A DNA stretch of 64,000 nt from a virus. Position numbers and translations under genes: made by a program. The notes beneath the pieces are model-generated. The model searched no databases. It was not told the DNA's origin and was given only the letters and a program-made list of their open reading frames with translations. Location: positions 1 through 64,000 of the IMG/VR virus record IMGVR_UViG_3300029309_000010; one strand, written 5' to 3'. This document shows, one piece after another, positions 400-64,000 of the stretch. Positions within the stretch are counted from its first letter, which is position 1. The number at the start of each line of letters is the position of its first letter.

Positions 400-2738
400 G
401 ATTTATGATCGTCATGAATACGATGTTTTTCAATTAAAAGTTGGATTTTTTTATTGCCGTCTAATATAGAACTAGAAACATAAGGCGTTATTTCTGAAAG
501 TATTTTTTTGTTCAGAGCCTCTATCTTAACTTTTTCATTAGATAAGCTATCTATGATTGATTTTATGTATTTAAAATCAAAATTAAGTTCTATGTCACTG
601 TCTTTGAGTCTGTTCTTAAGTCTCTTAAGTTTCATCCAAAGTATTCTCCTAAGACCTCTTTCATCTATTTCCTTCAACGGAAAGCACTCATCAACGTGCT
701 TCAATATATCTGGATGAATCATGAGATTATCTTTGTCTGATTTGGCTTCTTGAAAGCCCATAGATGATTGGCTATTAGACAGATCACTTGTTAGAAAGAT
801 AATGCAATTAGTGAAATCAGCCATATCACCATTGTTCATCTGAAACCTACCATCCTTAAATATTTGATTAAATAAGGGTATAGAAGAGTTATCTACTTTG
901 TGAAAATCATCTATGATAATGACACTATTTGGAGTAATTAAAACTTTCTCGCAAAGAGATGTATTATTACCCTGAGAGGTTGCTATCTTGTGAGGGGCAT
1001 ACAAATCAGCAAAATGCACACCACTGTATGAAAGAACATTTACTCCATGTTTTTGTAACGTATCTTTGAATATATCGAGGAAGTAAGACTTGCCACTGAA
1101 CTTAGATCCGCTAACAACATAACAGTCAGGAGAAGAGAAATTGTCTGTTTTTCTAATACCAAGAGAAGATAAAGTTATTTTCTCTTTTAGGTTTTTGAGG
1201 AGTTCTTTTTGTCCGACTATTGACTTCTCAATGCACTTAAAGCACTTGTCTATGAGGACCGTATTACTCAATGGGTTTCTTTTTTTAGAGAAGAAGTCCT
1301 TTAAATGTGAAAGCTTTACTTCTGGTTTTTCTTCTGGGACACCCTCTGTCCATTTCTCTAGGCTATCATTAAGTCTTTCTAAAAGCTCTGTGTGATCTTT
1401 TTCTGGATCTAGGGCAGCTTGCATTGTCTCCACCTGTATCTCTTTTATAGATGGTGTAACATGCCAAAAATTAACTTTAGCCTGTGCTCCGCAGTGATCT
1501 ATTATGTCAATCGCTTTGTCAGGATAAAATTTGTTAGGTATATACTTTTCACAGTAGTCTATAATATTATCCAAGAAAGAATCAGTATATTTGACTGTGT
1601 GAAATTTTTCGTAATATGAAGCAATAGTGGGAAGAATTTCCTCCATCTCAAATCTAGAGGGTTCTCTGATGATAATTCTCTCAAATCTACGATCTAAAGC
1701 AGTATCTCTCTTGATAGTATTTGTATATTCGTTGATTGTAGTAGCGCCAATGCAACTAATTGTTCCTCTGGCAAGTTCTGGTTTAAGTATGTTAGAAGCT
1801 TCTAGAGAATTGCTAGTAGCTCCTCCAGCACCTATCAACGTGTGGACCTCATCAATAAATAAAATTAGATTAGTATATTTCTTTGCTTCATTTACAAAGT
1901 CCTCTAAGCGTTTTTCAAACTGACCTCTGTATTCTGTGCCAGCTACCATGCTAGATAAGCTAACAGAATATATAACTTTATTAGCTATAAGCTCTGGAGC
2001 ATCACCCATAACTATTTTATTAGCTAACCCCTCTACGAGAGACGTTTTTCCAGTCCCCGCTGGACCAACTAAAAGTGCATTTGGCTTTTTCTTTCTACAA
2101 AGAGTTGTAGACAGCTCATCCATCTTGCCATCAAAATCAACTATCTTGTCAAACTCTCCCTCTAAAGCTTTTAAGTTTAAATTTTCAGCAAATTGAGAAA
2201 GAATCTCGTTCTTATCAAACATGTCGATCCAGTCATCAGGCTTGTCAAGTGATAATCTATTTATATCATCTGATAATTCAAAATCCTTAGCTGTTAGAGA
2301 GCACTCGGTTATAAAGCCCAAAATAATGCAATCCGCTTCTTCGTTACCTTGTGGATAAAGTTTTTTAACAACCTTTGGCGCATGTTTTTCATCAAAAAAC
2401 ATCATCAGTGCTACCTCTGGAGGTATATAATCTAATTCAAAATTTTCTTTAGATATCTGCTCCGCTTCTTTTAATAACTTGCGTATATCTGTTTTAAGAG
2501 ATTTTGTAGAATTTTTATTTTTGCGCTTCTTGTTAAGAACTTCTCTAGATTCTTTTAATAAATCTCTAGGGTCAACATTTACTTTTTTAAATATGGTCGC
2601 ACAAGATTGACTCAAATCATTTAAGAAGCAGTGAAAAAATAAATCTATGTCTGCTCCATTTCTGTGCAAAATAGCCGAAAGCTCTCTGGTTTTTTCAAGA
2701 ACTCCTTCAATATGTGGAGTTAGGGGTAAACTAGGCAT
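396..2738 (-). CDS. ClpA/ClpC-like Hsp100 AAA+ ATPase
   Basis: Clp N-domain-like start; NBD1 Walker A GPAGTGKT, pore loop AGTEYRGQFE, Walker B LFIDE, GATT, DTALDRRF; degenerate NBD2 (GSKFSGKS, IIIDD). Confidence 0.92.
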   Translation of the reverse strand: MPSLPLTPHIEGVLEKTRELSAILHRNGADIDLFFHCFLNDLSQSCATIFKKVNVDPRDLLKESREVLNKKRKNKNSTKSLKTDIRKLLKEAEQISKENFELDYIPPEVALMMFFDEKHAPKVVKKLYPQGNEEADCIILGFITECSLTAKDFELSDDINRLSLDKPDDWIDMFDKNEILSQFAENLNLKALEGEFDKIVDFDGKMDELSTTLCRKKKPNALLVGPAGTGKTSLVEGLANKIVMGDAPELIANKVIYSVSLSSMVAGTEYRGQFEKRLEDFVNEAKKYTNLILFIDEVHTLIGAGGATSNSLEASNILKPELARGTISCIGATTINEYTNTIKRDTALDRRFERIIIREPSRFEMEEILPTIASYYEKFHTVKYTDSFLDNIIDYCEKYIPNKFYPDKAIDIIDHCGAQAKVNFWHVTPSIKEIQVETMQAALDPEKDHTELLERLNDSLEKWTEGVPEEKPEVKLSHLKDFFSKKRNPLSNTVLIDKCFKCIEKSIVGQKELLKNLKEKITLSSLGIRKTDNFSSPDCYVVSGSKFSGKSYFLDIFKDTLQKHGVNVLSYSGVHFADLYAPHKIATSQGNNTSLCEKVLITPNSVIIIDDFHKVDNSSIPLFNQIFKDGRFQMNNGDMADFTNCIIFLTSDLSNSQSSMGFQEAKSDKDNLMIHPDILKHVDECFPLKEIDERGLRRILWMKLKRLKNRLKDSDIELNFDFKYIKSIIDSLSNEKVKIEALNKKILSEITPYVSSSILDGNKKIQLLIEKHRIHDDHKS

Positions 2739-5292
2739 CTTTCACCTCCCTCAATTTCATATATACATCTGTTTCTACTGGATTCACATTATCTACAAAA
2801 AATGTATTATTACTCTTAGATCCTGATATAACAATTACTTTACTTTTAGCGAGCTTATATTTGCTATCTAGAAAGTTTGTTAATCTAGCTTCTCTTTGAT
2901 TATCCATGAATAAGAATGTCTTTGTTGCTGTATTATCAGAGACTGATAGCATCATATATTTATTACCATTTTGAGATGTTCTTGTAAAGAAATCTTTTAC
3001 CTCACCAACAACTTGAAAGTTTTGCCGATCCACTAAATCTTCAACTTCTTTTAAATCAATCAGCGATGAAAACCTATCTTGGAAACATTCTCTAAGATTA
3101 TGAGAGTAACTATAACCAAGAAGAGAACTTTCATATCTCCATTTAGCAAACATTTCATGTTTCTTATTTTGATTATAAATCTTTTTATATTTATCAAACT
3201 TGGCTCTAAATGTTTTAAATCTTTTGTGAGACATTATAGGCTTATTGTCATCTCCAAGAGTTTGTTTTTCCAAAACCTCTGATATAGCATTTAGTATATC
3301 ATAGCCAAACCTTTCTCCTATTTTAGAGAAGTTTCTTTTTTCTCTGTCTGTTAGTAAGTTGAATGATTGAGCTTCTAGAACCATTCTGGTTCTATTAGTC
3401 TTGGTGTGATCCATAGTCCCAGCTTGAATTAGTGCTGATAAAACAGATATGTTTATACCACATTGCTTGGCAGCTACGAATACTTCGTATTTATTATTGA
3501 ATTCCATACCTCGGAAATCAATCAGGCTTTTTATTGATTTTAAAGATATGCCCTTGATACTGTTTAAGCCATATCTGATATTACCTTCCTCAATTGTAAA
3601 ATCAAAATCAGATTTAAAAAGGCATGGAGGCAACATACGCATGCCAAAATCAGATAGCTCTTCATTTACTCCAGATACTGTCTGCAAGGGTTCTGGGTCA
3701 AACTCGGCGCACTCTAAAATGGATAGGAAAAACTCCTGTGGATACTTGTGTTTTAAGTAAACGGTCTTAGCAGCAAGATCAGCATAAGCAAAGCTATGAG
3801 ATTTATTAAATGAGTAGTGAGACGCAGCAACCAGTGAGTTCCAATAGAAGTCACTGATTTCCTCATCAAGATTATTTTCTCTCCCCGCCTCATAAATCCT
3901 ATCTTTCCACTTGGGCATTTCATCAACCTTCTTTTTCCCTACGATCCTTCTCAATATCTCTGCTTCTTCAAGGGTAAGACCAAAAACTTTATGAGCAATC
4001 TGCATCAGCTGCTCTTGATATAGAATGACGTTTTTAGACCAAGAAAGTATGGTATCGAGTTCTTCGTTTAAATTAAGTTGAGATGGAAACTCTTTTTGTG
4101 TTTTATAAACACTAACAAATTCTAAAGCTGCTGGTCTAGCTAGAGCAACAACATCTGAAAGTTCATTTATATCAGCTGGCTTTATATCTTTACAAACTTT
4201 AAAGTTTGTTTCAGCAGAAATCTGAAAAAGACCTATTGGATGTTTGAAGTCCTGCAATATCTCATAGATCATCTTGTCATTTGGATCTATGTCTTCAATA
4301 TCTATGCCGACTTTCTCGCAAGTCTTGTGAGCTATCGTTAAAGTTCTTAGACCTAATATATCAAACTTAACCATTAGGTCTGCCACATCAGACATATCAT
4401 ATCCTGTAACTAAGTCTCCATCTTTTGTTTTTTGTAGTGGAACTACATTTCCTATATCCTCTGAGCAGATAGCAATTCCAGAGGGATGGACTCCTGTGTT
4501 TTTAGGAAGGTTTTCTATCTTCAGTGCATTTTTGTAAGTCTTTTCATGTTTTTTTACCCATGATCTAAATTTATCTGACTCTTCTTTTGCTTGTGACAAA
4601 GGGAATACTTTACCATGCAGTTTTGGTATCATATCTGACACCTGATTAGCCTCGTCTTCTTTAGCCTCATCAAAATATTTAGTAGCCTCTCGTATGCAGA
4701 GTTTAGAGCTAAAAGTATTGAATGTAAGAATCTTGGCTGTTCTACCTTCATGTTTTCTTTCAATATATTCTATGACCTTATGTCTTTGATCATAAGATAT
4801 ATCCGAGTCAACATCAGGAAGTAAGCTGCCGACTAAGAATTCCTTACCTCGTTTATCGGTCACAGTCTTTGCCCTAGATTTAGATACAAATCTTTCAAAG
4901 AATAGATCGTGAGGTATGGGATCAATATTTGTTACTCCAAGGAGATATAATACAAGAGAGCCAGCAGCAGAACCCCTGCCAGCACCAGTTGGAATGTTAT
5001 TGTCATGACAAAAATTTAGAACGTCCCAGTTAAGTAAAATGTAGTCCGTGAATCCAAGCTCCTCAAAAGTCTCAAGCTCTTGTTTTGCTCTTTGATAGTA
5101 ATCGTTTTTATTTTCATATTTAGTTATGCCTTTATCTCTCAAGCCTTTTCTGGCTAGTTCATATAATATATCTTTAGTTGAGCTATCTGGACCAAGCCCG
5201 ATCTCTTTTAGCTTTTTAAGATCAACAATTGTTTTAGGTAGCTCTACACCCGCAGGTTCACAATCGTCATATATTGTAAAGTCTTCAAACAT
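2731..5292 (-). CDS. dnaE: DNA polymerase III alpha (DnaE) catalytic part, lacking the PHP domain
   Basis: GRGSAAGSL, LFFERF, PDVDSD, HPSG, KFDILGL, YSFNKSH, C-terminal OB fold; start moved to ATG 5292 (TAATG overlap with the exonuclease stop). Confidence 0.95.
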   Translation of the reverse strand: MFEDFTIYDDCEPAGVELPKTIVDLKKLKEIGLGPDSSTKDILYELARKGLRDKGITKYENKNDYYQRAKQELETFEELGFTDYILLNWDVLNFCHDNNIPTGAGRGSAAGSLVLYLLGVTNIDPIPHDLFFERFVSKSRAKTVTDKRGKEFLVGSLLPDVDSDISYDQRHKVIEYIERKHEGRTAKILTFNTFSSKLCIREATKYFDEAKEDEANQVSDMIPKLHGKVFPLSQAKEESDKFRSWVKKHEKTYKNALKIENLPKNTGVHPSGIAICSEDIGNVVPLQKTKDGDLVTGYDMSDVADLMVKFDILGLRTLTIAHKTCEKVGIDIEDIDPNDKMIYEILQDFKHPIGLFQISAETNFKVCKDIKPADINELSDVVALARPAALEFVSVYKTQKEFPSQLNLNEELDTILSWSKNVILYQEQLMQIAHKVFGLTLEEAEILRRIVGKKKVDEMPKWKDRIYEAGRENNLDEEISDFYWNSLVAASHYSFNKSHSFAYADLAAKTVYLKHKYPQEFFLSILECAEFDPEPLQTVSGVNEELSDFGMRMLPPCLFKSDFDFTIEEGNIRYGLNSIKGISLKSIKSLIDFRGMEFNNKYEVFVAAKQCGINISVLSALIQAGTMDHTKTNRTRMVLEAQSFNLLTDREKRNFSKIGERFGYDILNAISEVLEKQTLGDDNKPIMSHKRFKTFRAKFDKYKKIYNQNKKHEMFAKWRYESSLLGYSYSHNLRECFQDRFSSLIDLKEVEDLVDRQNFQVVGEVKDFFTRTSQNGNKYMMLSVSDNTATKTFLFMDNQREARLTNFLDSKYKLAKSKVIVISGSKSNNTFFVDNVNPVETDVYMKLREVKDA

Positions 5293-58419: not shown

Positions 58420-59097
58420 TTAATATATATCGCTTTTTTCAATTTTATCTACTAAGTAGCTTATGATCTTATCTCTCATAACGTCATCCTTAGTAAACTT
58501 AAGATGATGAATGCCATATGAACGGCTTTCCTCATCATCGAACACCTTGCAGAATTTACTGAACCCAGTAGAGTATATATCACTCTGCATTGTATCCCCG
58601 CATACAAACAACGTAGTATTCGTGCTGATTCGCGTTAATACTGTTGTTAGTTCTTTTACTGTCATATTTTGCGCCTCATCAACTATAACAACCTTGTTCT
58701 TCCAAGTCGCACCCCTTAGAAAGTTAATCGGGGCCGCATCTACCGCATCCCGCTGGTCTAATTGATGTCTCTCATGGTCACTTAAAAGTTCACTCAACTT
58801 ATCTTCCAACGGACCAATATAAGGATTAAATTTATCATCCATGCTTCCTTTCAGAAAACCCATCCCCTTCTCCGCACTCTCAGCCAAACTCCTTAAATAT
58901 AGGATCTTAAGCAGAGTGTCCTGATTGTGTTTATATATTGCTGTATACACTGACAAAAATGTCTTAGCCGTCCCAGCTGGTCCACTAATAAATACTACCC
59001 GCGTATCGGGGTTCCTCATGATCTTATGGAATTGACTCTGTTTTTCTGTAAGTTCTATATGACCTAACAAAAAAGAGTTTTTATATTTATATGACAT
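58420..59097 (-). CDS. phoH: PhoH-like ATPase
   Basis: GPAGTAKT, FLRG.T, DEAQN, GD..QSD. Confidence 0.92.
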   Translation of the reverse strand: MSYKYKNSFLLGHIELTEKQSQFHKIMRNPDTRVVFISGPAGTAKTFLSVYTAIYKHNQDTLLKILYLRSLAESAEKGMGFLKGSMDDKFNPYIGPLEDKLSELLSDHERHQLDQRDAVDAAPINFLRGATWKNKVVIVDEAQNMTVKELTTVLTRISTNTTLFVCGDTMQSDIYSTGFSKFCKVFDDEESRSYGIHHLKFTKDDVMRDKIISYLVDKIEKSDIY

Positions 59098-59256
59098 ATA
59101 TGTTCTTTTTTACACGAATAACTGAATGGGTGCCTACTTGTTTATAGAATTCGCCACCCCCCTGCGCGTTGCGCGTCAAGTCAAAAAGTCAATATTCTAA
59201 AAAAACCCTACCCTGCCTGCCCTGCAAAAAAAAATCACTTTTTATGCGATTAGGGC

Positions 59257-59284
59257 TTGCGCTCAACAGGATCTGTAGTATAAT
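59257..59284 (+). promoter_or_regulatory. Early promoter (leaderless)
   Basis: TTGCGC-16-TATAAT-6 nt-ATG; A-tract upstream. Confidence 0.8.
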
Positions 59285-59290
59285 GCTCAC

Positions 59291-59557
59291 ATGACTAAGA
59301 CAAAGACCACCTACAGAACCACCATCGACTTCCTCAACGACTGCGACACAGTGATCTTCGAACACGAAGGTGTCGAGCACGAGGGAGAAGTCACCTTGCA
59401 CGATCCTGAGATCCACGAAGATGACTGCCCAGAGGGGCACGTTTACATTCTGTTTCCTGCCATCGCAGGACAAGAAGAGTATCCCTTCGGGATGCCAGTC
59501 CACGAGGACGACATAGTCGCTAAGATCGACGAGGACGGCGAGAGGATCGAGCTGTAG
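59291..59557 (+). CDS. Early hypothetical acidic protein
   Basis: Starts at the predicted +1; GC-rich codons. Confidence 0.75.
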   Translation: MTKTKTTYRTTIDFLNDCDTVIFEHEGVEHEGEVTLHDPEIHEDDCPEGHVYILFPAIAGQEEYPFGMPVHEDDIVAKIDEDGERIEL

Positions 59558-59592
59558 GCGCTAAAAAAAAAGAAAAAAAAGCGCGATTCCCC

Positions 59593-59620
59593 TTGCGCCC
59601 ACGCTAAAATCAGCTATAAT
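59593..59620 (+). promoter_or_regulatory. Early promoter (leaderless)
   Basis: TTGCGC-16-TATAAT-6 nt-ATG. Confidence 0.8.
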
Positions 59621-59626
59621 ATCCCC

Positions 59627-59875
59627 ATGACTCAGGAAGACATCATGACCCGCCCGACTGACAACTACTACGTGGTGACCGCTGCCTCACGCGCCGACTC
59701 TATGAGTCGCGTGCTGGTGGGTGGCACCGTGAACAAGCCGCTTGCCCTCGCTATCGGAGAGCAGCAGATCGCTGGGATGGTGAGCGGTTTCGCCTCCCGC
59801 GCCGAGGCACTTGAGACATACCCCGAGATGCGCGGCGACCTCATCCCTCGCCCTCTCCCTCTTCCTACCCTGTAA
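59627..59875 (+). CDS. Early hypothetical protein (FASRAEA motif)
   Basis: Promoter geometry; paralogous motif in 60439-60639. Confidence 0.75.
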   Translation: MTQEDIMTRPTDNYYVVTAASRADSMSRVLVGGTVNKPLALAIGEQQIAGMVSGFASRAEALETYPEMRGDLIPRPLPLPTL

Positions 59876-59893
59876 TCACTAACAAGTAATCAA

Positions 59894-60187
59894 ATGAAAC
59901 TCACATTCCAATACCTCAAACAGTTCACCATCACCGCCATCGTGTTCACTCAAGCCATCTCCCTCATCATACTTGGGTTGATCTGGTGGTTCAGTGGTTC
60001 AGCAGCAGCAGTCAACTACATCAAGACGCAATACGTGGGCGACTACATGAATCAGGAGGGCCTAGTTCTCTGGCTTACAGTGTTCGCGCTTCTTGGGTCG
60101 CTCTTCTGCGCCCCCATCGCTGCCTTTTTTCACTGGCGCTCTGATCTAGCCCCAATCCCTACCCACAAAAAAAAAGTGCGTGGCTAG
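59894..60187 (+). CDS. Small membrane protein (2 predicted TM helices)
   Basis: Two long hydrophobic stretches; basic C-terminus. Confidence 0.7.
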   Translation: MKLTFQYLKQFTITAIVFTQAISLIILGLIWWFSGSAAAVNYIKTQYVGDYMNQEGLVLWLTVFALLGSLFCAPIAAFFHWRSDLAPIPTHKKKVRG

Positions 60188-60289
60188 GTAAAAAAAATCT
60201 TGACATCCGTCTGTAGGGTGTCGCTGTCATGGGAGGCCCCGTTCCCCGCTTGGGGGGCGGGGCTAACCCGTTGCCTCAAGATCACAAGT

Positions 60290-60368
60290 CATAACTCGTT
60301 GACACTCAAGGACTTACGAGGGCGCGGCCCCCGCAAACTCGTAACTCGTTGACGCTCAGTCAGTTACG
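60290..60368. repeat. 79-bp double-palindrome element, copy 1
   Basis: CATAACTCGTTGACACTCAAGGACTTACG + 21-bp GC spacer + CGTAACTCGTTGACGCTCAGTCAGTTACG. Confidence 0.9.
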
Positions 60369-60404
60369 AGGGTAAAAAAAAGAAATAAAAAACGCATTTA
60401 GGGC

Positions 60405-60432
60405 TTGCGGTTAGGCGCAGCTGTGCTAGTAT
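60405..60432 (+). promoter_or_regulatory. Early promoter (leaderless)
   Basis: TTGCGG-16-TAGTAT-6 nt-ATG. Confidence 0.75.
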
Positions 60433-60438
60433 TCCCCC

Positions 60439-60639
60439 ATGACAGTAACTGAAACTACCCCTCGCCCCCGCCCGTTTTTCATGGTGATCCGCCCGAGCCG
60501 CGTTCACGCGGGCTTTTGCCTCCTCTGGTGTGGCGAGGACCGCCATGATGCCCCCTACGGCCACCCGATGGCTTTCGCTTCCCGCGCCGAGGCGGTCGAG
60601 GCGTATCCCGATTGGGAAGAGGAGATCATGACCTCCTAA
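60439..60639 (+). CDS. Early hypothetical protein (FASRAEA motif)
   Basis: Promoter geometry; stop codon lies inside repeat copy 2. Confidence 0.75.
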   Translation: MTVTETTPRPRPFFMVIRPSRVHAGFCLLWCGEDRHDAPYGHPMAFASRAEAVEAYPDWEEEIMTS

Positions 60640-60713
60640 GTCACTAAGCCTCAATGAGTTATGAGGCGCGGCCCCCCGCCGCCTCGTAACTCGTTGATAC
60701 TCAAAGAGTTATG
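60635..60713. repeat. 79-bp double-palindrome element, copy 2
   Basis: CCTAAGTCACTAAGCCTCAATGAGTTATG + 21 bp + CGTAACTCGTTGATACTCAAAGAGTTATG. Confidence 0.9.
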
Positions 60714-60832
60714 ACTTAAGTTCTAAAACCGCATCTTTTACTATAGGCTGTCAAGTCAAATATTTGGCTATTTGCTATTTGTTGTTCTAACCTGCAACCT
60801 GAATTAAAAATGATTTTTTAATGAAAAAAATG

Positions 60833-60860
60833 TTGCGTAGTCTGCGGTTCTGGCTATACT
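60833..60860 (+). promoter_or_regulatory. Early promoter (leaderless)
   Basis: TTGCGT-16-TATACT-6 nt-ATG(60867). Confidence 0.75.
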
Positions 60861-60866
60861 GTGGAC

Positions 60867-61076
60867 ATGACAGTTGATCAGGCACTAGCCAAACTAATGA
60901 AAGCAGAAGCTGCACTTGAGGTTGAGCGCAATAAGCACAACGCCCTTCGGATGGACATATCGGGAGTGCAAGGCCAGCTCAGTGTTGTTACTATGTTCTG
61001 CAAGGACGAGTCTGCTAAGTCAGACCTAAATGACTCCATCAAGAAAATCCAAACTGCATTAAACAATGATCAATAG
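60867..61076 (+). CDS. Early coiled-coil hypothetical protein
   Basis: Start moved to ATG 60867 by promoter geometry. Confidence 0.7.
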   Translation: MTVDQALAKLMKAEAALEVERNKHNALRMDISGVQGQLSVVTMFCKDESAKSDLNDSIKKIQTALNNDQ

Positions 61077-61257
61077 AATAGACCAGATTCTCTCGAATCT
61101 CCAGTGCGCCGCCGTCGATGGTGGCTTTAGCCTGTCCGTCAAAGACGGGGAAATCGTTGCCAAGGATCTGATCTCTGAGCAGCCTCTTGAGTTTATCGTC
61201 CGCTTCACTGGGGACGACATCTCTGATGTATCAGTAAAACCACTAACAAAAAAGTAA
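61066..61257 (+). CDS. Hypothetical protein
   Basis: Overlaps the previous gene; operon. Confidence 0.65.
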   Translation: MINRIDQILSNLQCAAVDGGFSLSVKDGEIVAKDLISEQPLEFIVRFTGDDISDVSVKPLTKK

Positions 61258-61258
61258 C

Positions 61259-61651
61259 ATGGGACTCGACCAATACGCCTACAAAGTAAAGCGCAAGTAT
61301 GCGCCTACCACTAAGACTTCAACCGTAAGAACTACAGAGTTCTTTTACTGGCGCAAGCACAACGCCTTGCACGGTTGGATGGAGAATCTATACAACGGAA
61401 AAAAACTAGAGGATGGCATCAACATAGACAGCGATGACTTCAATGGTGTCGCTGTTAAGCTGGAGGAGAAAGACTTGGATAAGCTGGAGCAGGATGTCAT
61501 GACCTTCAACTTGCCTCAGACCGCAGGTTTCTTTTTCGGTCGTGACAGTGTGGGTGATGAATACCAGAAAGAGCAGACTCTTGAGTTTCTCAAGAAAGCT
61601 AGGAAAGCACTTGCCGAGGGTTTCGAGGTTGAGTATAACAGTTGGTGGTAA
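61259..61651 (+). CDS. Conserved phage hypothetical (MGLD...YWRK.N family)
   Basis: MGLDQY, YWRKHNALHGW, LP...GFFFG, Y.SWW pattern common in phage early regions. Confidence 0.75.
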   Translation: MGLDQYAYKVKRKYAPTTKTSTVRTTEFFYWRKHNALHGWMENLYNGKKLEDGINIDSDDFNGVAVKLEEKDLDKLEQDVMTFNLPQTAGFFFGRDSVGDEYQKEQTLEFLKKARKALAEGFEVEYNSWW

Positions 61652-61827
61652 TGGAATCATTCAAAGTATACTTAAAAGAAGTCCACTGGCAGGAGGTGCA
61701 TGTTCACGCTACCAGTAGACAAGATGCAGTAAAACGTGCGCGTGATGGGGAGGGTGACTATGTTGGTGCTACAACATACGACCACACAATCGAAACAATA
61801 AGTGAACACAGGGTAGAAGAACTGTAG
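61651..61827 (+). CDS. Small hypothetical protein (DpnD/PcfM-like pattern)
   Basis: TAATG-coupled start; FKV.L.E....V.V.A.S..DA. Confidence 0.55.
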   Translation: MESFKVYLKEVHWQEVHVHATSRQDAVKRARDGEGDYVGATTYDHTIETISEHRVEEL

Positions 61828-61854
61828 AAACTCTCAACATCACTTTGACAAAAG

Positions 61855-62109
61855 ATGGAAAACCAATACAGTAGTATAACAAAGCAGGTAATCAGGTTCG
61901 GCCCAACCGACGAATTCCCCTTCCTCTTAAACTTAACTATAACTTCTAATGACAAGCGCACTTGTTCTTTTACTGTTCATACTTTGCAGTCCGATGATAC
62001 GTGGTCTGCTGCACTTCCCCAATGGCTCTTCACTGAGGCAAAGCAGAAAGAAATCAGGCTTCTGCTTAATCAGCTATGTCAGAAACATGCTCTGAAAAAG
62101 TTCTCGTAA
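61855..62109 (+). CDS. Hypothetical protein
   Basis: Stop codon inside repeat copy 3. Confidence 0.6.
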   Translation: MENQYSSITKQVIRFGPTDEFPFLLNLTITSNDKRTCSFTVHTLQSDDTWSAALPQWLFTEAKQKEIRLLLNQLCQKHALKKFS

Positions 62110-62183
62110 CTCACTGATACTTAGTGGGTTACGAGGCGGGGGCGGCGCCGCCCTCCTAACTCGCTGATACTCAACGAGTTATG
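62105..62183. repeat. 79-bp double-palindrome element, copy 3
   Basis: CGTAACTCACTGATACTTAGTGGGTTACG + 21 bp + CCTAACTCGCTGATACTCAACGAGTTATG. Confidence 0.9.
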
Positions 62184-62210
62184 AAAGTGAAAAAAAAAGA
62201 AAGAAAACGC

Positions 62211-62238
62211 TTGCACGGTTAGCTGACTGTGTTACTTT
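62211..62238 (+). promoter_or_regulatory. Early promoter (leaderless)
   Basis: TTGCAC-16-TACTTT-6 nt-ATG. Confidence 0.7.
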
Positions 62239-62244
62239 CCCCAC

Positions 62245-62469
62245 ATGACAGATCTACATGACTTCATCACCGTCCGCCCCGAAGAACTCATCGACTCCCT
62301 CGCGGACGGCCCCCGCGAAGGGCAGTTCAACCCGTCACCCGAGGAGGTGCAGGAGTTGTTCGCGCAGATTCACGCGGAGGAGCACCCCACCCAGTTCTCG
62401 ACTGACGATGACGAGCGCGACGAGATACCGATGCTCAACACGGAACTTGCAAAAAGATTCGTTCCGTAA
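62245..62469 (+). CDS. Early acidic hypothetical protein
   Basis: Promoter geometry; stop codon inside repeat copy 4. Confidence 0.75.
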   Translation: MTDLHDFITVRPEELIDSLADGPREGQFNPSPEEVQELFAQIHAEEHPTQFSTDDDERDEIPMLNTELAKRFVP

Positions 62470-62543
62470 GTGATTAATACTCAAGGGGTTACGAGCCGCG
62501 CCCCGCCGCCCCCTCGTAACTCCTTGATACTCAAGGGGTTACG
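62465..62543. repeat. 79-bp double-palindrome element, copy 4
   Basis: CGTAAGTGATTAATACTCAAGGGGTTACG + 21 bp + CGTAACTCCTTGATACTCAAGGGGTTACG. Confidence 0.9.
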
Positions 62544-62680
62544 ACTGAATAAAAAATAATAAAAAAGGTTTGCAGATCAGGCGTCTTGTGATAGTCTATT
62601 TGCAAGTTAGCTATTTGCTATTAGACCATATATCCTGTAACCTATGATCAAAAAAATGTTCAGATTCAGCAGAAAACCTC

Positions 62681-62708
62681 TTGCACTCACTGCAAAACCT
62701 GTTAAAAT
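62681..62708 (+). promoter_or_regulatory. Early promoter (leaderless)
   Basis: TTGCAC-16-TAAAAT-7 nt-ATG(62716). Confidence 0.7.
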
Positions 62709-62715
62709 CACACCC

Positions 62716-63009
62716 ATGCAACCAACCAATCTTACTAACGTAATCGTGGATGCTAACCAGCAGTTACCAAGCAATCCAGTTCACCTTGCCTCTGAGCTTA
62801 CAGGCAAGACCGTTTCCTACACTAACAAAGAGAAATCTTCTGTTGTGTCTGGCAAAACCAGAGTCTTCAAGATCAAAGCAGTTGAGGACATCACCGTCTC
62901 CAAAACCACGGGCAACGAGTATGTAACCGTGCAGGTCCAAGACTTGGACGATGGAGGCACCGTCAAGCATCGGAATCTCCTTGTGCAAGGAATCGACGTT
63001 GTTGTATAA
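62716..63009 (+). CDS. Early hypothetical protein (beta-rich)
   Basis: Start moved to ATG 62716 (MQPTN) by promoter geometry. Confidence 0.7.
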   Translation: MQPTNLTNVIVDANQQLPSNPVHLASELTGKTVSYTNKEKSSVVSGKTRVFKIKAVEDITVSKTTGNEYVTVQVQDLDDGGTVKHRNLLVQGIDVVV

Positions 63010-63026
63010 TTCTACCAAACAAAACT

Positions 63027-63251
63027 ATGGCATCTAAAACCAAAACAGAAACCGTTAGGATCGAAGTGAGAAACTCCGATCAAGCCGCCCTTGTAAGCTA
63101 TGGCCTCGGCCTAGTCCATCAGGAACTCTCTACCAAGCTAGTGGATGTGGCAGATGATAAGCTCGACACCTTTGTTGGGAACATCAAGTATCTTCGCAAG
63201 AATGCTAATCACTTAAACGAAAAGTTTTCTCTCCCCGTGAACGATCAATAA
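63027..63251 (+). CDS. Hypothetical protein
   Basis: Co-oriented; A-rich upstream. Confidence 0.7.
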   Translation: MASKTKTETVRIEVRNSDQAALVSYGLGLVHQELSTKLVDVADDKLDTFVGNIKYLRKNANHLNEKFSLPVNDQ

Positions 63252-63418
63252 TTTCTAGAAACCTCCCCTCCTGTTCTCTCTGATGGGTAGGTGGTTGTAA
63301 AACACAGTGAGGCTTTTAGCGGTGGGCGTATAACCGTAGGCTTAACGTAAGAGTAGCCGCCCCTCTCCCACTTTTCTAGACAGTGGGTGAGGGAACCACT
63401 TTCTGCATGGTGCTAACT

Positions 63419-63461
63419 GCCCCGTCCCCTATGTTTGCTCATGTTAGGGGGCGGGGTTTTT
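63419..63461 (+). terminator. GC hairpin with T tract before the tRNA
   Basis: GCCCCGTCCCCTA...TAGGGGGCGGGGT followed by TTTT. Confidence 0.55.
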
Positions 63462-63534
63462 GGGAGTGTAGCTCAATGGTTAGAGCACACGACTCATAAT
63501 CGTTAGGTTGCGGGTTCGAGTCCCGCCGCTCCCA
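63462..63534 (+). tRNA. tRNA with CAT anticodon (Ile2-like or elongator Met)
   Basis: Acceptor GGGAGTG/CGCTCCC, D arm GCTC/GAGC, loop CTCATAA, T arm GCGGG-TTCGAGT-CCCGC; no encoded CCA. Confidence 0.9.
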
Positions 63535-63611
63535 TAACTCACTAAGCCTCAAGGAGTTACGAGTCGCGCCCCGCCCCGCCCTCGTAACTCGTTGATACTC
63601 AACGACTTACG
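63533..63611. repeat. 79-bp double-palindrome element, copy 5
   Basis: CATAACTCACTAAGCCTCAAGGAGTTACG + 21 bp + CGTAACTCGTTGATACTCAACGACTTACG. Confidence 0.9.
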
Positions 63612-63646
63612 ACTGAAAAAAAAAGAAAGAAAAAGGCAAAATAGGG

Positions 63647-63674
63647 TTGCATCAAATCTCTCATGTGATACTCT
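63647..63674 (+). promoter_or_regulatory. Early promoter (leaderless)
   Basis: TTGCAT-16-TACTCT-6 nt-ATG. Confidence 0.7.
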
Positions 63675-63680
63675 CCTCCC

Positions 63681-64000
63681 ATGCTGATACTAGCTAAGAA
63701 CAAAGTTGATACCGAGCAGCTCGCAGAAGTTACCACCCCGTCTGCAACGGACACTCACACTCCAATCCCTCACGCGCTCCTCGCGGATCGCACTCGCACC
63801 GTCATTGATGCGGCTGGTTTGGAGATCGTCGAAGAGGAACACGCGATTGCGCGTGGTGGTCTTCGCTACTTTGGTGGCTTCGCCCTCAAGGGTGAGGCCA
63901 TCGACGGAGATGACCGCAAGCTGGTGCTTGGTCTCCGCAACGCGCACGACAAGTCTTTTGCGGCTTCCGTGTGCATCGGCAACCAGATGATGGTCTGCGA
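63681..64000 (+). CDS. DUF932-like protein (partial, runs off window; not in ORF track)
   Basis: Hand translation MLILAKNKVDTEQL...TDTHTPIPH...RYFG...LGLRNAHDKSFA...MMVC matches the DUF932-type RN.HD/VC pattern. Confidence 0.75.
   Translation, partial: MLILAKNKVDTEQLAEVTTPSATDTHTPIPHALLADRTRTVIDAAGLEIVEEEHAIARGGLRYFGGFALKGEAIDGDDRKLVLGLRNAHDKSFAASVCIGNQMMVC

Follow-up and report, generated by a model that had tools for sequence, protein, structure and literature searches.

A 79-bp double palindrome that recurs in the early-gene region of an uncultured phage is best read as a pair of protein-binding sites at the boundaries of early transcription units, with a host protein of the IHF/HU kind as the candidate partner, and not as a hairpin under selection; we put the probability of this reading at roughly 45%. 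The element was analysed in the IMG/VR virus record IMGVR_UViG_3300029309_000010, which is 85,136 bp long and 63% complete by CheckV, and of which the first 64 kb (64,000 nucleotides) form the window discussed here. An earlier note, made from the letters of the window, had described the element and proposed a cassette-shuffling system, with an RNA signal or a paired operator as alternatives. The last of these comes closest to what the data favour, and the rigid boundary element of the note is genuine: it separates early transcription units and is linked with an A-tract and a TTGC promoter.

All five copies in the window (starting at 60290, 60635, 62105, 62465 and 63533, as first described) consist of two 29-bp palindromes separated by a 21-bp GC-rich spacer (Table 1). 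Each 29-mer has a 3-nt centre between 13-bp arms, CGTAACTCGTTGA-TAC-TCAACGAGTTACG, and each arm reads TCA(A/G)-N4-TTA from the centre outward. T3, A4, A5 and T11 and their mirror images are invariant in aligned elements and fall into blocks of the kind usual in protein sites. The spacer forms a weak GC palindrome of its own, with a mean of 5.1 of 10 pairs against 4.4 with shuffled partners; its ends, reported as always AG...CT, are not generally so among relatives. A 25-nt core pattern allowing up to 3 mismatches gave 5 matches in the window and 0 in 100 shuffles. When the whole 85-kb record was scanned with a sequence-only profile built from 74 elements (E up to 1), seven copies and no others were recovered, two of them beyond the window. 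Copies inside one genome are 66–83% alike. The TAA of the first arm does serve as the stop codon of the upstream gene in three copies (60637, 62107 and 62467), and copy 5 does overlap the 3′ end of a tRNA-Met gene, by 3 nt. The central 7-mer, said to keep one orientation, does so inside the window, but the inverted centre is present in copies 6 and 7 and in many relatives; in gene orientation TAC outnumbers GTA by 25:4 in the second palindrome and by 17:8 in the first.

The element is widespread among uncultured phages. An exact pattern scan found it in 31 IMG/VR stretches and a looser pattern gave at least 120 matches; overall, more than 100 IMG/VR phage stretches carry the unit in their early regions, and 468 half-sites were collected from 104 viral loci. 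In the first 31 loci together with this record, 93 of 97 pairs were exactly 50 bp apart. Unique neighbouring pairs were offset by 50 bp (118 pairs), 51 bp (9), 49 bp (4), 52 bp (5), 53 bp (5), 58 bp (5) or 41–43 bp (4); the 50-bp period described as invariant thus holds in the window, but other lineages use different ones. Phage-like contigs binned into bacterial metagenome-assembled genomes (MAGs) carry the same palindrome pair around other spacers, of 13 nt (L061 and L140) or 24 nt (L084), and in a 139-kb contig (L125) a clean hairpin, GACCCCGAAGGGGTC, with a T run behind it makes up the 28–29-nt spacer. Spacer length is lineage-specific and the paired architecture is conserved. A complete relative (G001; 147.7 kb, 100% by CheckV) has its sites in two clusters of about 3 kb each. 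The stretch itself is present in 20 marine or aquatic metagenome runs from nine studies; no RNA run is listed for it, and RNA was sequenced for two of the samples. No match was found in GenBank phages by megablast of the 58–64 kb region or by blastn of the element against 50,697 phage records.

We asked whether the palindromes are maintained as hairpins, as the earlier note had argued from compensatory changes between arms (CACT/AGTG and CCTT/AAGG) and from G-T wobbles on the top strand. In an ungapped alignment of the 74 elements, 77.9% of cells were paired, compared with 75.2% when 3′ partners were shuffled among sequences. Because shuffled partners pair almost as often, the palindromy comes nearly entirely from two copies of one half-site consensus, and the hairpin is not selected. 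At variable columns, between 35 and 50% of the copies are unpaired (37 of the 74 copies at columns 9/21, 29 at 2/28, 28 at 6/24 and 25 at 10/20). Among 180 unique half-sites, Watson–Crick counts equal the expectation for independent columns; position 6, for example, shows 111 Watson–Crick pairs against 112 expected, plus 37 C·C and 32 G·G. The compensatory changes, without statistical support, are anecdotal. Fifty-one unique elements could be oriented by the direction of flanking genes, taken from the excess of third-codon-position substitutions between homologues, and their sense strands carry 75 G·T and 72 A·C mismatches. As the two are equal, there is no wobble bias that would point to an RNA or to one given single strand. 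Orientation by the C-richness of the spacer was rejected as unreliable, with a ratio of 34:16 when compared with gene direction.

These results bear on the possibility, which we consider unlikely, that the element acts as RNA, its palindromes and GC spacer folding in early transcripts to terminate, attenuate or direct processing (for example, as an RNase III-type long hairpin). Such a role would suit an element that begins at the upstream stop codon, or no farther than about 10 nt from it, and whose predicted RNA is far more stable than shuffles (z of −2.7 to −8.6). It would also suit the hairpin spacer and T run of the 139-kb contig, the A5–7 upstream and T5–9 downstream that flank the element in one lineage (L015, L016 and L029), and the precedent of stem-loops in the promoter-early stem-loop cassettes (PeSLs) of T4, which terminate transcription (PMC2839356). 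Neither compensatory variation nor a sense-strand G·U excess accompanies these features, however, and the predicted minimum-energy folds differ among the five window copies: a central hairpin made of arms 2 and 3 in copies 1, 2 and 4, and three local hairpins in copies 3 and 5. In this phage an A-tract rather than a T-tract follows the element, and a terminator scan called 0 of the 5 window copies. Canonical GC-hairpin and T-run terminators stand separately before copy 5 (upstream of the tRNA) and before copy 6 (64461–64501 of the record), so the element is not needed as a terminator there; before copy 1 stands a GC hairpin that lacks a T run. An Rfam search with an E-value limit of 1 matched the tRNA alone and no family for the element. 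A terminator role may nevertheless exist in some lineages, because some relatives add an A run before the element and a T run after it.

A double-stranded protein site would account for the conserved positions, and one known consensus fits them. The core consensus of IHF is WATCARNNNNTTR (WATCAR-N4-TTR; 10.1101/382655). It is matched perfectly in 72 of the 74 elements, in a constant register within a palindrome, compared with 0.2% of shuffled 79-mers. The palindrome amounts to one such site, readable in either orientation, not to two. In the promoter-proximal palindrome the perfect consensus falls on the bottom strand in 45 of the 74 elements and on the top strand in 19, a predominance that corresponds to the preference for a TAC centre in gene orientation noted above (25:4). 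Other known sites, namely CIRCE, HAIR, Fur, FNR, LacI-type, parS and KorB-type, were compared by eye and rejected, their half-sites or spacing being wrong.

Bacterial chromosomes contain the same imperfect palindrome. With the 25-nt pattern and one genome per species, Fibrobacter was strikingly over-represented among the matches listed. We then sampled phyla, allowing up to 1 mismatch and using the reversed pattern as a control. Matches were found in 18 of 61 Fibrobacterota genomes, with 1–8 sites each (0 control hits), and in 6 of 100 other genomes from Verrucomicrobiota (0 control hits), 1 of 100 from Bacteroidota (2 control hits) and 0 of 100 from Pseudomonadota (0 control hits). Among Verrucomicrobiota, an Akkermansia MAG (G273) has 6 sites, and two Lentisphaeria MAGs (G270 and G271) have 4 and 6. 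In these three and in two Fibrobacter genomes (L162–L176) the chromosomal palindrome spans 25–29 bp, TAA(C/G)TC..TGA...TCA..GA(G/C)TTA, at 3–8 sites per genome. The Fibrobacter sites also share features outside the search pattern: CGTAAC...GTTACG ends, the TAC/GTA centre and the same imperfect positions. In the two Fibrobacter genomes 15 of 15 sites are intergenic, and 4 of the 15 lie between divergent genes, where no transcript ends; such placement, and the fact that particular bases are kept in phage lineages and in bacterial chromosomes alike, would be unexpected of terminators and speak against an RNA role. Neighbouring genes are unrelated (glyA, fabD, purL, dnaA, large Ig/cadherin surface proteins and a TPR protein). 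Such scatter is what a nucleoid-associated or architectural protein would show, and not what would be expected of a regulator of one pathway. To our knowledge, this chromosomal site family has not been described in Fibrobacterota or in the Verrucomicrobiota that carry it.

Matches in Bacteroidota were rejected as a clue to the host: they are perfect A4-hairpin-T4 terminators, and the phylum is not enriched. A perfect hairpin, AAAATAACTCCTTGAAAATCAAGGAGTTATAAA, recurs 3–4 times within about 10 kb in Candidatus Arcticimaribacter forsetii (G008, 1937907–1948276) and in L070, L053 and L095, and has the same sequence in several Flavobacteriaceae; a conserved terminator that belongs to a repeated locus is the probable explanation, and the hairpin has no relation to the phage element. 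Separately, a palindrome similar to the element abuts a tRNA 3′ end in a contig from a Spartobacteria bin (L152).

Each of five motif-bearing Fibrobacterota genomes that were checked has two genes of the IHF/HU family PF00216. NCBIfam scoring covered the pair from one genome and a single gene from another; one gene was closest to HU and the other closest to IHF subunits, below the cut-offs. A lone IHF-like gene would be expected to act as a homodimer, which could favour a symmetric site. The chromosomal sites also bear on the unlikely alternative that the elements are paired operators through which a phage-encoded regulator, either carried in the virion or made as an early or middle protein, would turn the early block as a whole off or on. 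In its favour, the sites are palindromic, of fixed geometry and confined to early-gene clusters (60–67 kb here, and the two clusters of the complete relative), and conserved early genes for DUF932 and GP88 proteins lie between elements, as they also do in the divergent lineage whose period is 42 bp. The same imperfect palindrome nevertheless stands beside housekeeping genes in Fibrobacterota and some Verrucomicrobiota, for which a host factor is the simpler explanation. Pfam and PHROGs searches of the small proteins of the block recognised DUF932 and GP88 and no DNA-binding family or regulator, and the sites lie at about −75/−86 or farther upstream, without overlapping −35 or −10.

The promoter positions behind these values come from 59 leaderless promoters recognised 3′ of elements, with a TTGC-type −35, a 15–18-nt spacer, a TAnnnT-type −10 (frequently preceded by TG) and, 4–9 nt farther on, the ATG. 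The TTG of the −35 begins 23–29 nt after the element in 12 cases (mode 24) and 35–36 nt after it in 11. These two classes are about one helical turn apart, with the proximal site centred near −75 or −86. In the earlier note every copy is followed by an A-tract and a TTGC promoter; copy 2 departs from this, because about 100 nt of another conserved module intervene. This second module, TGTCAAG ... CTATTTGCTATTTG ... AACCTGCAACCT, lies between element and promoter in many relatives, and we located it at 60749–60801 and 62610–62643 of the window and at 3681–3714 of L040, with TAACCTGCAACCTG or CCTGTAACCT as its last part. TGTCAAG was considered as a bottom-strand TTGACA promoter and rejected, no usable −10 following it.

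Several observations weigh against the reading of the element as paired IHF/HU-type sites. The two consensus copies in a palindrome overlap and could not both be occupied, because WATCAR sits between the two kinks in the IHF co-crystal. We know of no characterised precedent for a palindromic IHF-type site. A search for PF00216 genes in the phage record and four relatives came back empty, and therefore the host would have to supply the protein. Periods of 42–58 bp across lineages keep no single helical phase between the paired sites, and in the remaining cases among the 59 promoters the −35 TTG lies 46–220 nt from the element, often behind the second module; such wide spacing applies to about half of the elements. 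To these come the terminator-like flanks and hairpin spacer described above, and a small excess of pairing, mostly in the spacer, that 0 of 500 shuffles reach.

The proposal of cassette shuffling was partly borne out: genes are gained, lost and moved between relatives, and several homology breaks fall exactly on element edges, but the data do not support a special role of the element in them. Homology with one relative (L012) ends at 60714, next to the end of copy 2 (60713), and resumes at 62107, beside the start of copy 3 (62105), with a different insert between. When assembled contigs of four metagenomes were aligned to 58500–64000, 14 of the 24 divergence points listed were element edges: 60284, 60367, 60376, 60711, 60714, 62543, 63549, 63580, 63583 (two runs), 63585, 63611 and 63612 (two runs). 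An X6 contig diverges at 60714, one contig passes from the end of copy 2 directly into sequence 3′ of copy 6, and two runs have 1129 extra bases between the tRNA end and copy 5 (between 63535 and 63549). In several contigs a palindrome from one copy is linked, with a new spacer in between, to the second palindrome of a different copy. The sides of these joints are short (28–57 nt) and the joints come from metagenome assemblies, and we regard them as no more than suggestive. In comparisons of this record with relatives sharing 80% identity or more, elements account for 5 of the 18 distinct homology ends (60292, 60714, 62107, 62145 and 63615), and the others are at ordinary gene starts or ends, at a leaderless ATG or before the tRNA. 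As elements occupy 7 of roughly 18 gene boundaries in the block, about the same share, the element is not clearly preferred. Over all loci, junctions are enriched 1.5- to 3-fold at elements relative to random positions. A homologue of the 61259–61651 gene occupies three different positions among relatives, with at least one junction lacking an element.

Exchange also occurs at other joints. The tRNA-Met gene is one, several contigs matching the tRNA alone and diverging at 63461/63467 and 63528. Promoters are swapped at start codons as well: around 59627–59640, metagenome contigs diverge at 59638/59639, and in one relative (L030:6333) a copy-1-type element with its promoter and the first three codons of the 60439 gene is fused to a homologue of the 59627 gene. 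Modular exchange would thus use joints of more than one kind, the element among them.

The earlier note saw no recombinase in the window, and none is present in the 85-kb record either, where PF00589 (tyrosine recombinases), PF00239 (serine recombinases) and PF01797 (Y1 transposases) were sought. PF00589 is likewise missing from four relatives, including the one that CheckV puts at 100%, and PF02195 (ParB) from this record and three relatives. A site-specific recombination site bounding mobile cassettes, of the integron attC type or a tyrosine-recombinase core, is accordingly largely refuted and now extremely unlikely. The stop codons within a TAAC...GTTA-type end, the 11-7-11 layout that the note likened to a recombinase core and the varying cassette content of relatives recall such a system. 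The missing recombinase families, even in the complete relative, a promoter of its own for each cassette (integron cassettes differ in this), a rigid rather than variable length, the lack of a strand-specific folding signature and the position of most homology ends at ordinary gene boundaries all speak against it. Also very unlikely is a selfish or neutral repeat, resembling repetitive extragenic palindromes (REPs) or miniature inverted-repeat transposable elements, that was spread or kept by recombination and has no role beyond providing homology for cassette exchange. A repeated, palindromic, extragenic element at whose edges homology breaks, and whose copies are joined through new spacers, would look like this. 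Yet the copies are only 66–83% alike while length and invariant positions are exact in more than 100 contigs, and purifying selection on the site is therefore indicated; no Y1 transposase is present in the record, and the phasing with promoters would not be expected.

For the favoured reading, paired sites for a host protein, we infer the following mechanism. Each 29-bp palindrome would bind a dimeric DNA-binding protein, most likely a nucleoid-associated, DNA-bending host protein of the IHF/HU kind, and the stiff GC-rich spacer would hold the two sites at a fixed distance. The unit stands at the end of one early transcription unit, and the −35 of a directly following promoter is 24 or 35–36 nt downstream, in two helical phases. 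By bending the DNA, the bound protein could feed upstream DNA and the A-tract to RNA polymerase, or it could insulate neighbouring units. The repeated unit may, in addition, offer short homology for the exchange of gene blocks between related phages, as T4 PeSLs do, without a dedicated recombinase. A bolder version, distinctly unlikely in our view, has the elements as pads for an uncharacterised homodimeric IHF-like protein from a host lineage independent of Shine–Dalgarno sequences (for example, Fibrobacterota or the Planctomycetes–Verrucomicrobia–Chlamydiae group). A large group of marine phages would then have a modular 'plug-in' early architecture in which the bent element drives the next leaderless promoter and is the preferred joint for exchange. 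If that were true, the element would double as a host-lineage marker for uncultured phages.

The element is among the most tightly constrained non-coding features in widespread uncultured marine phages of roughly 130–150 kb. If its sites bind a host architectural protein, they show how the first minutes of transcription are wired in these phages. Following the element into chromosomes revealed a previously undescribed site family in Fibrobacterota and some Verrucomicrobiota, and a non-coding motif of this kind could help in guessing the host lineage of uncultured phages. The idea behind PeSLs, regulatory cassettes that double as recombination joints, is extended beyond T4-like phages. Were the element merely a terminator variant, its interest would be modest.

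Table 1. Copies of the 79-bp element and associated features (window positions unless marked as record positions).
Feature	Position	Strand	Details
Copy 1	60290–60368	+	Palindrome 60290–60318, GC spacer 60319–60339, palindrome 60340–60368; profile 67.6 bits
Copy 2	60635–60713	+	TAA 60637–60639 is the stop of open reading frame (ORF) 60439–60639; profile 71.3 bits
Copy 3	62105–62183	+	TAA 62107–62109 is the stop of ORF 61855–62109; spacer G-rich on + strand
Copy 4	62465–62543	+	TAA 62467–62469 is the stop of ORF 62245–62469
Copy 5	63533–63611	+	Overlaps last 3 nt of tRNA-Met; profile 72.2 bits
Copies 6 and 7	64522–64600 and 66547–66625 of the record		Beyond the window
Promoter after copy 1	60369–60441	+	A-tract; −35 TTGCGG (60405–60410); −10 TAGTAT (60427–60432); leaderless ATG 60439; TTG 36 nt after element
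Second module and promoter after copy 2	60749–60869	+	TGTCAAG, CTATTTGCTATTTG, TAACCTGCAACCTG; then A/T-rich stretch; −35 TTGCGT (60833); −10 TATACT; ATG 60867
Promoter after copy 3	62184–62247	+	A-tract; −35 TTGCAC (62211); extended −10; leaderless ATG 62245; TTG 27 nt after element
Promoter after copy 5	63612–63683	+	A-tract; −35 TTGCAT (63647); −10 GATACT; leaderless ATG 63681 (DUF932); TTG 35 nt after element
Terminator-like GC hairpin and T run	63420–63461	+	Upstream of tRNA
tRNA-Met (CAT)	63461–63535	+	Abuts copy 5; sole Rfam match
DUF932 gene	ATG 63681	+	After copy 5

All seven copies lie in one plus-strand block of small genes (59.1–66.65 kb) with minus-strand genes on both sides. The block has 48% G+C, compared with 36% in the rest of the record, and its single genes range from 38 to 63%. 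Within 59100–64000 and on to 66650 of the record (L040:1–3650), genes of 54–63% G+C (59291, 59627, 60439, 62245 and 63681) alternate with genes of 38–47%, which suggests that the units of the block were drawn from phages differing in base composition. DUF932 and a GP88-family protein with a Cys-rich N-terminal part form the conserved core of the early block (L040:681–1439 and 1964–2647; L061:1468–2277 and 2718–3404). An HNH endonuclease (L040:4641–5219) and a RuvB-like AAA+ protein (L040:8620–9576), both on the minus strand, are encoded just past it. The phage terminase is about 26% identical to Bacillus phage terminases and a DnaE-type polymerase is encoded; the phage is unrelated to T4 and without a close cultured relative. 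A Shine–Dalgarno-like motif precedes 7 of 64 long ORFs, against a background of 7.7%, as in a phage that does not use it. Independence from Shine–Dalgarno sequences and leaderless early genes, the latter noted at 59250–63683 and in related loci, are compatible with a host outside the phyla that classically use them.

Among known systems, the element is comparable in operation to the PeSL. In T4-type phages the PeSL is a composite intergenic unit in variable early regions, made of the stop codon of the upstream gene, a sequence that can fold into a stem-loop (in many cases poly-G and after it poly-C), AT-rich DNA and a strong σ70-like early promoter (PMC2839356, PMC4122927). The likeness drawn in the earlier note is apt: the phage element has the same composite parts and many repeats and lies at some of the indel or replacement junctions between relatives, and in 23 of 59 cases it is followed within 23–36 nt by a corresponding A-tract, TTGC −35, 16–18-nt spacer and extended −10. 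Unlike PeSL stem-loops, which vary in sequence and in position relative to −35 and −10, the palindromes are fixed in sequence, length and spacing upstream of the promoter, and their stem shows no sign of selection. A PeSL also ends with a Shine–Dalgarno sequence and start codon, whereas the genes here are leaderless and lack one.

In composition the element resembles the bacterial interspersed mosaic elements (BIMEs), including the RIP form, of Escherichia coli and the Correia elements of Neisseria, extragenic repeats that combine palindromes with an IHF consensus at gene ends and, in the Correia case, carry promoters (PMC3184786). Here, too, an extragenic palindromic repeat at gene ends carries the IHF consensus (72 of 74) and is associated with recombination. 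The arrangement is reversed with respect to RIP, which has one IHF site between two GC-rich REP palindromes; the phage element has two IHF-like palindromes flanking one GC spacer. It resides in a phage rather than a chromosome and lacks terminal inverted repeats and target duplications, and the RAYT (Y1) transposase associated with BIMEs (PF01797) was not found in the phage record.

With the attC sites of integrons the element shares an imperfect palindrome at a cassette end and a stop codon near a ...TAAC motif; it differs in that the phage has no integrase, the cassettes have promoters of their own, the length is rigid and there is no signature of single-strand folding. IHF sites lie upstream of the phage early promoters λ pL and Mu Pe. 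As there, a site for a putative bending protein would stand about 70–90 bp upstream of an early promoter with an A/T-rich, UP-like stretch, but those promoters each have a single asymmetric site, in contrast to a palindromic pair at nearly every early unit. In sum, the element is PeSL-like in its working and similar to the IHF-bearing BIME and Correia repeats; it belongs to none of these families and is not integron-like.

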